Assembly (NCBI GenBank): GCA_043823065.1
Contig: JBDRBB010000003.1
Span: 74,260-138,259 of the forward strand
Direction of reading: 5' to 3'
DNA: 64,000 nucleotides
From: Pseudomonadota bacterium
Lineage (GTDB): Bacteria; UBA10199; 2-02-FULL-44-16; DYJF01
The translations under genes and the position numbers were made by a program. Below are positions 47,275-64,000 of the stretch, in pieces. The notes beneath the pieces are model-generated. The model was given only the letters and a program-made list of their open reading frames with translations. It was not told the origin of the DNA and ran no database searches. Numbering within the stretch: the stretch's first letter is position 1; each line of letters begins with the position of its first letter.

Positions 47275-49083
47275 ATGAAGATCATAATAAAATACCATCA
47301 AAAGTTGTCTCTTTTTTTATTAACTCTGCTTTTAGCCAATCTGGCTTTTTTTAGCGCCTATACAGGTTGCGGCAGCGGCGGCAGTATACCATCTTCAGAT
47401 GTTACCACTGAAGATGACCCTATTCTAGATCCAACGCCAACACCCACACCTAGCCCACCTACTGAAGGCACTCCTTCTAGTTCTGAAGGTGATGGAGCTG
47501 GTGATGATGGCGGCGGTGATGACCCAACACCAGATACAACTGCTCCAGAAGCCTTAGTTACACCAGCAAACCATTCCACCATTCTTAATTCTACCAGCAT
47601 AGTAATTCAATTTAATGAAAGCATGGATCCTGGTTCATTAATCTTAAGTGGAATACTTTTGGCTGGAAGCGATGGCGGAACATGGTCAACTACTACCCAT
47701 GAAAATGATACTTTGACTATTGACCCCACCGCCACTTGGCCTACTGGCACTGGCACTTTAACAATTAATGCAAATGATCTTGCTGCTAACCCTTTAGCTG
47801 CCTTGAATTTAATTTATGGCGTGCAGGTTGTTTATGCTAGCCCAGGAGCTGCTGGTTCTGGCACAATGGACAGTCCTTTTGGCAGCATTAACCAGGCCAT
47901 AACTGTGGCAGAAGGTAACTTGCTGACTGCAACTTGGGATAGCGGCCAAGTTCATGCTTCTCAAGGAGTATTTGAAGTTGATTCCTCAGCAGGAACCAAC
48001 ATTGAAATGGCTGAAGGTGTTTGTCTCTATGGAGGATATTCTGCAACAAATTGGACTAATCGCAATGTTTTGGATTATGTCACAACTGTTAGAGATATAA
48101 ATGTTGTAGGCGGTGTAATTGACGCTCCAAACGCTGCTGTAGAAGCTGGGGCTGGCTTAACTGCGGATACAACAATTGATGGTTTTAATCTAGAAGGCGG
48201 CGGAGGCAATTATTCTGCAGCCATCTTTAATCATGATGGATCTGAGTTATCCATAATGTACAATTCTTTAGATGCTGGTGAGGGTGCTTTACGCAGCTAT
48301 GGTATCTATAATAATGGTTCTGCTCCCAATATTAGCTATAATACCATTAATGGCGGTGATATTGGCAATCGTAGTTTTGCTATATATAATGATAACTCTT
48401 CTCCTCTAATTGATTCAAATTATCTAGATGGAGGCAATGCCCTAATTTTTTCGCATGGCATCTATAATCTAAATTCCAGTGCAGTATCTATTATTAACAA
48501 TATAATAGAAGGAGGCAGCGGTGTACTAAGTTATGGCATTGACAGTGAAAACTCCTCTGTAACTATCAGAAATAACACCATAAATAGCGGCAGTGCAGAA
48601 TCAGACGAAGCATATGGGGTGCATATTAGAAATGAAGCTGTTTCGCCCTTTGTTATTGAAAATAATATCATTTTTACCTCAGTGGAAGCTGCTGCAAATG
48701 GCTATGGAATTTTTGAATACCATGCTAATTCTGACCCTACTAGCGTTAGAAATAATAATATATATAACTGCCCCACAGCTTTGTATTTTGACCGCGAGCT
48801 AGGAGAGGATTTTAACACGATTTGTACTGGTAATTTTGGCGACCCTGCTTGCGCCAGCACCCTTTCCACGCCTACAAGCTCTGGTAATATCAGTGAAATT
48901 CTCACCTTTGATGCTAATTATGCTTTTACAGGTAATTTGGACGCAGTTTCTTTTGATTCTGCAGGCTTAGATGGTTCTCTAGAAGCCCCTGCTTGGGTCT
49001 TTACAGACGACTTAGAAGGCTTTGCCAGAACCGGTGATGGAACTGGTACAGGCTGGTCTATGGGTGGTTTTGAATATGATTAA
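47275..49083 (+). CDS. Surface lipoprotein: Ig-like (SbsA/Big_5-type) domain plus right-handed parallel beta-helix
   Basis: YTG-C lipobox, PTPTP linker, DTTAP..FNESMD, GTMDSPFGSINQAI, NN-ladder repeats, C-terminal GGFEYD; no Lys in mature chain. Confidence 0.82.
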   Translation: MKIIIKYHQKLSLFLLTLLLANLAFFSAYTGCGSGGSIPSSDVTTEDDPILDPTPTPTPSPPTEGTPSSSEGDGAGDDGGGDDPTPDTTAPEALVTPANHSTILNSTSIVIQFNESMDPGSLILSGILLAGSDGGTWSTTTHENDTLTIDPTATWPTGTGTLTINANDLAANPLAALNLIYGVQVVYASPGAAGSGTMDSPFGSINQAITVAEGNLLTATWDSGQVHASQGVFEVDSSAGTNIEMAEGVCLYGGYSATNWTNRNVLDYVTTVRDINVVGGVIDAPNAAVEAGAGLTADTTIDGFNLEGGGGNYSAAIFNHDGSELSIMYNSLDAGEGALRSYGIYNNGSAPNISYNTINGGDIGNRSFAIYNDNSSPLIDSNYLDGGNALIFSHGIYNLNSSAVSIINNIIEGGSGVLSYGIDSENSSVTIRNNTINSGSAESDEAYGVHIRNEAVSPFVIENNIIFTSVEAAANGYGIFEYHANSDPTSVRNNNIYNCPTALYFDRELGEDFNTICTGNFGDPACASTLSTPTSSGNISEILTFDANYAFTGNLDAVSFDSAGLDGSLEAPAWVFTDDLEGFARTGDGTGTGWSMGGFEYD

Positions 49084-49205
49084 AAAAGTTCTTTGATAAC
49101 TTTGCGTTCTTTAATGAATTCTATTTTTTAGTCAAAATGTACCATTTTTTTGCTGAATAACAGAATTTAGCCTTCTTTTTTTCCAAATTAATCCATTAAA
49201 ATCAT

Positions 49206-49219
49206 ATAGTTGCAACTAT
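49206..49219. promoter_or_regulatory. Perfect 14-bp palindrome, candidate operator
   Basis: ATAGTTGCAACTAT, 22 nt upstream of the sigma28-like motif. Confidence 0.4.
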
Positions 49220-62442: not shown

Positions 62443-62495
62443 CTTAAAATCTCCTTTTACTCCCCACATCTGTTATTTAAATTTATGAGCATAAT

Positions 62496-64000
62496 TTAAT
62501 CATATTCATGGGCACCGATGGACCAGCCAGAAGTTCCATCACCTGTTCTGGTTAAGCCCAAAAGATCATCTATGAAATCCCAGCCAGCAGCAGCGCCATC
62601 TGCACCAGCAGTATCAAAGGTAAAATCGTCCAGAGTAAATCCACATCCAGCTAAGCTACTATCAAAAATATAACTAGCACCTGAGTCTAAACAACCTGAA
62701 ACATCTTCAGAAATATTATTAGCCGCAGTGATTAGCTCAAGAGTAAGATCTAATTCCATATCGCCAACAGCTAAAATATCTCCATCACCATCTGCATCGT
62801 GATAAAGAGCTGTGCTGCAACTAAATAGATTGTTATTGTTGACTGCAGTAGGATCAGAATCTACCGTAATTTCGTAGATGCAATATTCATCACCTGTACC
62901 AGAAGAAAAAATTAGGTTATTCTCTATTATTGGCTGACTATCATCAATACGAATTCCATAACTGTCTGTTGTTCCTTGGCCAGCATCTATAATGTTGTTT
63001 CTGATAAGAGCTGTATTATCTCCAACCAATAAACCAGCAGTAATTAAGGCTGTTCCGCCAAATATGATATTATTTTCAATGACAAAAGCCCCCCCACCTA
63101 CAGCAGCAATAGCCATGGTAAAGATCGTTGAAACTCCTCCACTAATAACATTATTTTGTATTGTGGCATTACTAGAACCAATATTGTACACACCCACACC
63201 CATAGTAGCATCTCCAGCTGAAATATTATTATTTCTTATTATTAGACTGGATCTATTACTACCCATTATACCATTACTAGTTGTTGTGCTGTTGCCACCG
63301 TCAATTGTGTTATTTTCTATGATGGGCGAACTATCATCACGATTATAAATACCATTGGTAGTTTCTGGGGCCTCACTATCATCTAAACCAATCATATTAT
63401 TAGAAATTGTAGGTGAAGCATCGTCATGATTAAAAATAGCTGAAATTTCTCCTGCTCCACCGCCAATAATACTAAACCCATCTATTATTGTATCTGCTGA
63501 TATTCCACTTCCATTTTCCACTGCACAGCTTGGATCACCACCTACCCCGCCAACAACACCTATATCTGCAATTACAGTTGGATGATCTACAATATTACGC
63601 ACAGTCCAATTTGTGGGGGAGTAGCCTCCAAATAGAGAAACACCATCTACCATAATGATATGAGTATCTGTTGAGTGATCTACTTCATAGGTGCCTTCGG
63701 CCACATGAACTTCGGCAGCATTCCAGGTTCCACCACTAACAATAAGGTTAGTCTGGGCTAAGGTAATTGCTTCTCTTATGCTAGCAAAGGGATTGGCCAT
63801 GGTACCATCGCCGATGCCACCGACTTTGACATAAACCACCTGCACACCAAAAGTTACAGTTAGAGTGGCCAGGGCATTACCTGCTAAATCGCTGGCTTCA
63901 ATTACCAAGTTACCAGTTTCAATATTCCAATTAGCCACTGGAGAAATAGTTAGCGTGTCATTATCATTAGTAGTTGTTGACCACACTCCGCCATCACTGT
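62496..64000 (-). CDS. Paralog of 47275-49083 (Ig-like plus parallel beta-helix), 5' end beyond window
   Basis: SDGGVWSTTTNDNDTLTI vs SDGGTWSTTTHENDTLTI; ends RTGDGTSGWSIGAHEYD; frame open to the window edge. Confidence 0.82.
   Translation of the reverse strand, partial: SDGGVWSTTTNDNDTLTISPVANWNIETGNLVIEASDLAGNALATLTVTFGVQVVYVKVGGIGDGTMANPFASIREAITLAQTNLIVSGGTWNAAEVHVAEGTYEVDHSTDTHIIMVDGVSLFGGYSPTNWTVRNIVDHPTVIADIGVVGGVGGDPSCAVENGSGISADTIIDGFSIIGGGAGEISAIFNHDDASPTISNNMIGLDDSEAPETTNGIYNRDDSSPIIENNTIDGGNSTTTSNGIMGSNRSSLIIRNNNISAGDATMGVGVYNIGSSNATIQNNVISGGVSTIFTMAIAAVGGGAFVIENNIIFGGTALITAGLLVGDNTALIRNNIIDAGQGTTDSYGIRIDDSQPIIENNLIFSSGTGDEYCIYEITVDSDPTAVNNNNLFSCSTALYHDADGDGDILAVGDMELDLTLELITAANNISEDVSGCLDSGASYIFDSSLAGCGFTLDDFTFDTAGADGAAAGWDFIDDLLGLTRTGDGTSGWSIGAHEYD

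Follow-up and report, generated by a model that had tools for sequence, protein, structure and literature searches.

Near-absence of lysine from the mature chains of four probable lipoproteins: largely a family trait, with a small lineage-specific residue

Lipoproteins of the Big_5/DUF1565 type, encoded by environmental Spirochaetota, Nitrospirota, Myxococcota and other bacteria, consist of a lipobox, a Gly-rich tether, an Ig-like domain and a beta-helix, and their chains are acidic and poor in both Lys and Arg. Two cases from the literature invite comparison. In Rickettsia parkeri, the methyltransferases PKMT1 and PKMT2 methylate the lysines of outer-membrane proteins and ubiquitylation is avoided (PMC8232902), and the lysine-poor chains of toxins exchange Lys for Arg (PMC13696103). 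Here we analyze four genes for probable lipoproteins whose mature chains are nearly devoid of Lys, located at 47275–49083, 50200–51345, 60517–62469 and 62496–64000 of a 64,000-nucleotide stretch (C3:74260–138259, hereafter the window). Each gene is designated below by its first coordinate. The window belongs to a 1.89-Mb genome in 27 contigs, 96% complete and with a GC content of 39.4%, whose closest named relatives by RpoB (67–72% identity) are metagenome-assembled genomes labeled 'Deltaproteobacteria bacterium' from the Rifle and Crystal Geyser groundwaters. The proteins 47275 and 62496 have the same lipobox–tether–Ig–beta-helix architecture as the Big_5/DUF1565-type family, at 30–49% identity, and contain 0 and 0.2% Lys against a family median of 1.5%, despite the AT-rich genome.

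Retranslation of the four open reading frames (ORFs) reproduced exactly the Lys counts of an initial annotation made from the sequence: 0, 3, 2 and 1 Lys follow the lipobox Cys in 47275, 50200, 60517 and 62496, respectively, a total of 6 in about 2140 residues (0.28%). Lys occupies positions 2, 6 and 10 of the 602-residue product of 47275, and the 570 residues past Cys32 contain no Lys. The signal peptide of 50200 contains Lys2 and Lys3 and its mature chain Lys77, Lys237 and Lys243, while in 60517 Lys5, Lys9, Lys13 and Lys17 precede Cys40 and the mature chain contains Lys623 and Lys650. One Lys lies in the visible part of 62496; the whole gene, which runs to position 64367 beyond the window, encodes 623 amino acids, of which two in the signal peptide and one in the mature chain are Lys. 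The Lys-free run of 47275 spans 570 of 602 residues and that of 60517 is longer than 580 residues, in each case at least half of the protein, the extent that defines a lysine desert. The genome-wide median is 7.7% Lys over ORFs, with a bimodal distribution in which 77 of 1581 ORFs fall below 1%. Against this level the probability of finding no Lys in 571 residues is about 1e-20. Against the 1.5% baseline of the family, the probability of at most 6 Lys in 2140 residues is about 2e-8, as given by a simple binomial that ignores over-dispersion among homologues.

The depletion is confined to the coding frame. Codons AAA and AAG occur 0, 3, 2 and 1 times in frame in the four genes and 13–26 times in each of the other two frames (0 in frame against 23 and 20 out of frame in 47275–49083). 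Each gene contains 23–52 in-frame Asn codons (AAY), every one of which is a single transversion from Lys. The GC content at third codon positions (GC3) is 0.23–0.28, slightly under the mean of 0.32 for the other genes. Base composition and foreign origin were considered as causes, and both are excluded by the low GC3 together with the plentiful out-of-frame AAR triplets. Because AAR is rare in frame yet common out of frame, Asn codons are many and GC3 is low, and because the DUF4423 protein encoded in the same operon as 50200 is Lys-rich (10.5%), Lys is kept out of the mature chains by selection at the protein level and not by mutation. Contigs from four metagenome runs, which were checked for Asn-to-Lys strain variation, are identical to the window across the stretches they cover.

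All four proteins begin with 2–4 Lys within the first 3–17 residues, followed by 14–20 hydrophobic residues, the pattern of a signal-peptide n-region and h-region. Pooled over 19 Lys-poor lipoproteins, signal peptides contain 9.3% Lys and mature chains 1.06%. The claim that Lys is kept in the signal peptide and purged from the mature chain is thus borne out. The n-region Lys is what any Sec signal peptide in an AT-rich genome shows, and serves as an internal control only.

Homologues of two of the proteins were collected to obtain a family baseline, and the resulting sets derive mostly from free-living environmental bacteria. The 96 homologues of 47275 have a median of 1.5% Lys, with 7 at or below 0.5%. 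For 60517, 25150 homologues were found; the best 149 give medians of 1.5% Lys and 2.1% Arg, with 8 of the 149 at or below 0.35%. Across the two sets, 5–7% of the homologues are as Lys-free as the window proteins. Named homologues in GTDB belong chiefly to Spirochaetota, and also to Anaerolineales, Desulfoluna, Polyangia, Nannocystales and Halobacteriovoraceae, and Nitrospirota are found among other environmental metagenome-assembled genomes. The Lys contents of the named homologues range from 0 to 4.8%, several lie at 0–0.3%, and values of 1.9–2.7% are found even in genomes of 34–41% GC. These data show that most of the Lys depletion is simply what is usual for extracellular Ig-like and beta-helix families, free-living bacteria included. 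A search of the literature on the Lys poverty of bacterial extracellular proteins yielded nothing useful. The possibility that a generic acidic, low-charge composition accounts for the pattern had been entered as a caveat in the initial annotation, and it proves to be the larger part of the answer, leaving a residue of 0–0.33% Lys observed against 1.3–1.9% predicted.

This residue was quantified by means of an AT-richness index derived from residues other than Lys. The Lys content of the homologues rises with the index in both sets (Spearman 0.35 and 0.39), and the index predicts 1.3 and 1.9% Lys for 47275 and 60517, which show 0 and 0.33%. After this correction 47275 has the third-lowest residual in its set of 96 and 60517 the second-lowest in its set of 149, within the lowest 1–4% of their families. 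When the comparison is limited to homologues whose AT index is similar or higher, just 1 of 77 and 0 of 69 have so little Lys. A small lineage-specific loss of Lys therefore remains after AT correction, as a statistical residue.

In a phylogenetic tree, the window paralogues 47275 and 62496 are sisters, at 0 and 0.2% Lys, and stand beside a homologue with 2.3%. Four close homologues from a genome of the same order (G016) contain 3.5–4.8% Lys, and the clade of four paralogous beta-helix lipoproteins in that genome (L008, L013, L015 and L017) lies at 4.0–4.8%. The beta-helix fold evidently tolerates Lys, since these paralogues lie well above the family range. Lys occupies about 60 alignment columns in the G016 homologues; the residues found there in the window proteins are Asn, Ser, Thr, Gln, Asp, Glu or Leu, with Arg at just 2–4 of these columns. 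Read by themselves, the G016 homologues would suggest a strong purge in the window lineage; that reading is weakened by the tree, in which the family outside the G016 clade spans 0.4–2.6% Lys and the clade itself is the outlier. The Arg content of the window lipoproteins is 1.1–1.6%, the same as in their relatives. Arg thus stays low where Lys has vanished, which indicates a loss of cationic residues altogether and not an exchange of Lys for Arg. In this the lipoproteins differ from lysine-poor toxin chains and also from the Arg-rich, Lys-free proteins of the same genome.

We favor, with moderate confidence, an account in two layers, in which families poor in Lys and Arg are overlaid by a modest lineage-specific removal of Lys from surface proteins. 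The four gene products are strongly acidic, probably lipid-anchored proteins that would be held off the cell by a tether rich in Gly, Ser and Pro, with Ig-like and beta-helix domains of kinds that bind or modify carbohydrates; judging from these domains, a function in surface adhesion or in acting on glycans is most likely. The first and main layer is the fold families themselves, poor in cationic residues wherever they are found (about 1.5% Lys and 2% Arg). Long-lived extracellular proteins rich in beta-structure may shun such residues, each of which would bring a site for trypsin-type cleavage, a reactive amine and a tendency to adhere to the anionic surface of the cell. The second layer would be selection in an AT-rich lineage that strips the last few Lys and leaves Asn, Ser, Thr, Gln, Asp or Glu in their place, for which the likeliest cause would be a general cost of Lys on anything exposed or exported. 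The same pressure would yield a Lys-poor major pilin and Lys-free, Arg-rich proteins that are likely substrates of type III secretion (see below). Signal peptides would retain Lys because positive charge is required in the n-region, which is removed by cleavage.

Several points weigh against this account. The lineage residue corresponds to few independent events, given that 47275 and 62496 are sisters and that no homologues exist with which 50200 could be compared. The 13 adhesin-like lipoproteins of the whole genome have a median of 1.2% Lys, near the family baseline. In G002, a genome of the sister genus that also encodes the Lys-free effector-like proteins, the adhesin lipoproteins nevertheless contain 1.1–2.3% Lys. 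The sigma-28-like promoter motif described below is not enriched ahead of Lys-poor lipoproteins as a class (1 of 14). Finally, we infer both the reason for the family-wide poverty in Lys and Arg and, from domains and tether, the surface exposure of the four proteins.

Some of the same observations would fit another explanation, namely that the window proteins are the low tail of a Lys-poor family, fixed once in the ancestor of the paralogues and owing nothing to organism-specific selection. The equally Lys-free fraction of homologues, the sister relationship of the two most extreme genes, the genome-wide median of the adhesin-like lipoproteins and the baseline composition of those in G002 all agree with inheritance of this kind. 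It accounts poorly for the presence of three unrelated lipoprotein lineages, all extreme, in one 17-kb island, or for the ranks of the AT-corrected residuals. Moreover, with so many Asn codons one transversion from Lys under AT pressure, a count of zero Lys needs continuing purifying selection. We regard inheritance alone as possible and rather unlikely.

The Lys content of lipoproteins in this genome follows their presumed location. Lipoproteins with 8–15% Lys are periplasmic housekeeping proteins, comprising SurA-like and cyclophilin peptidyl-prolyl isomerases, ABC and TRAP binding proteins and a TPR protein, and those with 0–1.5% Lys contain Big_5, TSP3, Kelch together with Big_2, FG-GAP or beta-helix domains; the adhesin-type lipoproteins as a group span 0–2% Lys. 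The expectation that the depleted lipoproteins are the adhesin-like ones is in agreement with this division. Exported proteins processed by signal peptidase I have a median of 7.8% Lys. Low Lys is also a signature of proteins adapted to alkaline or saline conditions, and the four mature chains are very acidic, with 71–77 Asp and Glu against 9 Lys and Arg. If every extracytoplasmic protein had adapted to high pH or high salt, however, the periplasmic lipoproteins and the signal-peptidase-I exports would be affected too, and their Lys contents are high or about equal to that of the proteome (7.7%); a general adaptation of the envelope is excluded by these normal values, and we assign it a negligible probability.

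Gly follows the lipobox Cys (position +2) in 15 of 25 Lys-poor lipoproteins and in 1 of 23 Lys-rich ones (Fisher p = 4e-5), and usually continues into a run of Gly and Ser. Such a Gly might serve surface display, either as a signal for sorting or as part of the tether.

The major type IV pilin (C8:299762–300187; L176:963–1388) has 2 Lys in its leader and 1 in its mature chain, and the pseudopilins of the type II system retain 6–9% Lys. Orthologues of the pilin in 22 other genomes of the class (L179–L202) have 0–2 mature Lys, except for one with 5, and the Lys-poor pilin is therefore a class-wide trait.

Besides the lipoproteins, the whole genome encodes about 75 ORFs without a signal peptide that contain less than 1.5% Lys, most of them with 6–12% Arg (about 8%). 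About 25 of the Lys-free ORFs open with the motif M-[FYL]-S-x-G-E. In the window, members of this cohort occupy 5695–18900, 43318–46987, 51416–54068 and 58290–60083. The same N-terminal motif and the same Lys-free mode occur in the same-family genome G002, and relatives in G001 contain about 2% Lys. One Lys-free gene (C8:9192–10325) sits within a type III secretion cluster. The apparatus is encoded at C8:7400–20500 and C18:6369–8561 and comprises an SctV equivalog, FliP, FliR, FliM/N-like, FliG-like and FliH/SctL proteins and an ATPase; the cluster also encodes a TPR chaperone-like protein and a FliA/WhiG-like sigma factor. By the NCBI models the export gate is an SctV (801 bits, with the cut-off at 692) and does not qualify as FlhA. 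Neither flagellin nor a rod or hook protein was found in the genome, and the only secretins found are those of the type II system and the pilus. Across the class, the export gate is present in 40 of 41 genomes and flagellin in 2. The Lys-free, Arg-rich proteins are likely substrates of this type III system.

A promoter motif links part of this cohort to the window lipoproteins. The sequence GCAAC-N14–18-CGATA occurs at 75 sites genome-wide against 13.6 expected by shuffling, and lies upstream of 35–46% of the Lys-free genes without a signal peptide and of about 1% of ordinary cytoplasmic genes. It also heads the operons to which three of the four window lipoprotein genes belong. Shared regulation of the lipoproteins with the Lys-free effector-like genes was considered; it holds for these three genes and fails genome-wide, given the frequency among Lys-poor lipoproteins noted above. 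The window lipoproteins and the effector-like proteins are neighbors, partly co-regulated at this locus, and not one class.

The initial annotation compared the lipoproteins with the methylated surface of R. parkeri. According to this proposal, the bacterium resides in the eukaryotic cytosol and its Lys-free surface proteins are not ubiquitylated, a compositional equivalent of methylation. The precedent is real and was stated correctly (PMC8232902), and surface lysines are unavailable in both cases. R. parkeri, however, keeps and modifies its lysines and is a proven cytosolic pathogen, whereas in the window proteins Lys is absent, nearly as it is in their free-living homologues. Several features of the genome are in line with the proposal: its small size (1.9 Mb), the SctV-type, flagellin-less secretion system found throughout nearly all of the class, the promoter motif shared by three of the four lipoprotein genes and strongly enriched ahead of Lys-free proteins, and the cohort of about 75 low-Lys proteins with mostly about 8% Arg, a composition like that of lysine-poor toxin A chains (PMC13696103). 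The lipoproteins themselves do not show the corresponding properties. Their depletion is not confined to lineages exposed to tagging, as the environmental homologues are nearly as Lys-poor, and Lys has not been replaced by Arg with retention of charge. The comparison with free-living taxa, which had been named beforehand as the possible refutation, largely speaks against the proposal, although the small residue persists.

The gene content of the genome and the habitat also count against the proposal. No ankyrin or C48 domain was found, nor was an OTU or U-box domain, the latter two in searches run without a positive control. Type IV pili, a type II secretion system and many adhesins are encoded. 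The stretch 47275–51345 recurs, with no sequence difference, in biofilm and groundwater metagenome contigs from four studies; it was found in no other kind of metagenome, and no RNA data set was listed as containing it. We consider ubiquitin evasion quite improbable, and for the lipoproteins the analogy is neither needed nor favored.

A TLC-like membrane protein of 429 amino acids is encoded at C25:32800–34100 (L141:1426–2715), 1.5 kb from a Lys-free gene whose product begins with MFSGSE. It scores above the Pfam cut-off and reaches 49 bits against the cut-off of 387 for the NCBIfam NTP/NDP exchanger, a difference that excludes it as a true nucleotide transporter and counts against a cytosolic life. 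It is a distant relative of nucleotide transporters.

The catalytic chains of AB toxins and other lysine deserts (PMC13696103; PMC10665810) resemble the window proteins in having long Lys-free stretches under selection. These proteins retain or gain Arg and act in a cytosol that contains ubiquitin or Pup, whereas the window lipoproteins are low in Arg and extracellular, so that the neighboring Arg-rich, Lys-free proteins fit the comparison better. Given the type III system and the Arg-rich, Lys-free proteins, some interaction with eukaryotic cells is conceivable, and with about 75 such proteins lacking a signal peptide, a Lys-directed pressure outside the cell is possible. In its broadest form, the entire exposed proteome (the lipoproteins, the major pilin and the approximately 75 likely secreted proteins) would have been stripped of Lys as a shield against lysine-directed tagging or attack by associated cells, with the lipoproteins as its outermost layer and the ubiquitin of a protist host as one candidate attacker. 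We judge such a shield to be about as improbable as ubiquitin evasion. Still less probable is an attack on Lys unrelated to ubiquitin, by a protease specific for Lys or by some amine-reactive or cross-linking activity of the organism itself, its prey or a host. The spread of the depletion over several routes of exposure (lipoproteins, pilin and proteins without a signal peptide) is consistent with it, whereas no candidate enzyme was identified in this analysis and the low Arg of the lipoproteins fits a general avoidance of trypsin-type sites or of charge equally well.

Near-zero Lys in a secreted or surface protein is thus easily read as ubiquitin evasion. Since Ig-like and beta-helix surface proteins are poor in Lys and Arg in many free-living bacteria, claims of evasion need baselines matched for family and GC content. 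Returning to the account in two layers, should one pressure explain both the lipoprotein residue and the Arg-rich cohort, the lineage would be a good system for asking why extracellular Lys is costly. Of the two, the more interesting is the cohort of Lys-free, Arg-rich proteins associated with the type III system that lacks flagellin.

The gene at 47275–49083 (+ strand) encodes a probable lipoprotein with a signal peptide (residues 1–31), Cys32, a Pro/Thr/Ser tether (30–80), a Big_5 domain (87–188) and a beta-helix (approximately 200–540); its 570-residue mature chain contains 9 Arg and 71 Asp and Glu. The Big_5 domain (PF13205) was detected with 36 bits in 47275 and with 70.8 bits in 60517, above the gathering threshold of 23.6 bits. 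An AlphaFold (AF2) model of 47275, computed with 40 homologues, has a mean predicted local distance difference test (pLDDT) value of 85.8, and shows a signal-peptide helix, a disordered tether (30–80), an Ig-like sandwich (87–188) and a right-handed beta-helix (approximately 200–540). The Ig-like part is a beta-sandwich that matches CopC with a template modeling (TM) score of 0.73 in Foldseek. The beta-helix consists of regular short strands between residues 224 and 513, with pLDDT values mostly above 90. Its fold is shared by the mannuronan C-5 epimerase AlgE4 (2pyh), the pectate lyase Pel9A (1ru4), GH28 and GH87 enzymes, phage tailspikes and the pneumococcal adhesin PfbA (4mr0), and the similarity is at the level of the fold only (Foldseek E-values of 5e-6 to 1e-3, identities of 8–17% and TM-scores of 0.25–0.56). 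Pfam reports no beta-helix domain (PF13229, PF07602 or PF05048) in 47275 itself, and these domains are present in its homologues.

The other three genes differ in architecture and organization. The product of 60517–62469 (− strand) is a probable lipoprotein with Ig-like repeats of the Fn3/Big_5 type and 2 Lys in 610 mature residues. Its repeats align with the Fn3/Big-type tandem repeats of giant adhesins at 33–50% identity; it differs from them in size (about 640 amino acids as opposed to 1000–5600), in having a lipobox and in its 0.33% Lys. Translation probably starts at a TTG at position 62442, which coincides with the start of the database gene call and with that of the initial annotation. 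The gene at 62496–64000 (− strand) is a paralogue of 47275–49083 with 47% identity and heads an operon of two lipoprotein genes; it is preceded by a promoter motif at 64468–64494, beyond the window. The gene at 50200–51345 (+ strand) encodes an orphan probable lipoprotein, anchored at Cys14 or Cys16, with 3 Lys in 365 mature residues; the homologue search returned only the protein itself, and a carboxypeptidase-regulatory-like fold is a weak match. It overlaps by 4 bases the gene for the DUF4423 protein (49343–50203, + strand), which lacks a signal peptide and is under the same promoter motif, a sigma-28-like GCAAC-N17-CGATA at 49242–49268 (+ strand) upstream of this operon.

The lipobox residues are Y-T-G-C in 47275, G-Y-G-C in 60517, N-A-G-C in 62496 and M-C-G-C in 50200. 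Gly at −1 and Cys are thus present in all four, and positions −3 and −2 are non-canonical with respect to [LVI][ASTVI][GAS]C. Homologues bear canonical lipoboxes, such as L-T-A-C-G-G-G. The four proteins are best described as probable lipoproteins.

Two further genes had been cited in the initial annotation as not depleted in Lys. For the FG-GAP lipoprotein (20792–22435, − strand) this was mistaken, as its mature chain contains 12 Lys (2.3%) and 26 Arg, a Lys content three times below the genome median. The protein with a PL10-like pectate-lyase domain and a TSP3 repeat (54188–55996, + strand) does have 5.0% Lys, but it is a poor control, being an ORF without a signal peptide. Just 120 bases separate this ORF from the neighboring gene upstream. 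It is adjoined by an IS200-like Y1 transposase with a DnaA-C-type helix-turn-helix (56287–57264), and a laminin-G fragment of 132 amino acids is found at 57358–57756. The region 54188–57756 looks like a rearranged spot with gene remnants.

The members of the Lys-free, Arg-rich cohort at 43318–46987, 51416–54068 and 58290–60083 all lie on the − strand and lack a signal peptide. The two proteins encoded at 43318–46987 contain 0.7 and 0.9% Lys and 10.7 and 7.3% Arg; the second begins with MKCAGE, and a promoter motif is found at 47052–47077 (− strand). Another two, at 51416–54068, contain 0.6 and 0.9% Lys. The protein encoded at 58290–60083 begins with MYSAGD and has 0.8% Lys and 8.2% Arg, with a promoter motif at 60162–60187 (− strand). 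A Lys-free member in which a domain can be recognized is the TPR-repeat protein at 19119–20759; it lacks a signal peptide and contains 3 Lys (0.5%) and 8.1% Arg, and its gene is likewise preceded by the promoter motif.

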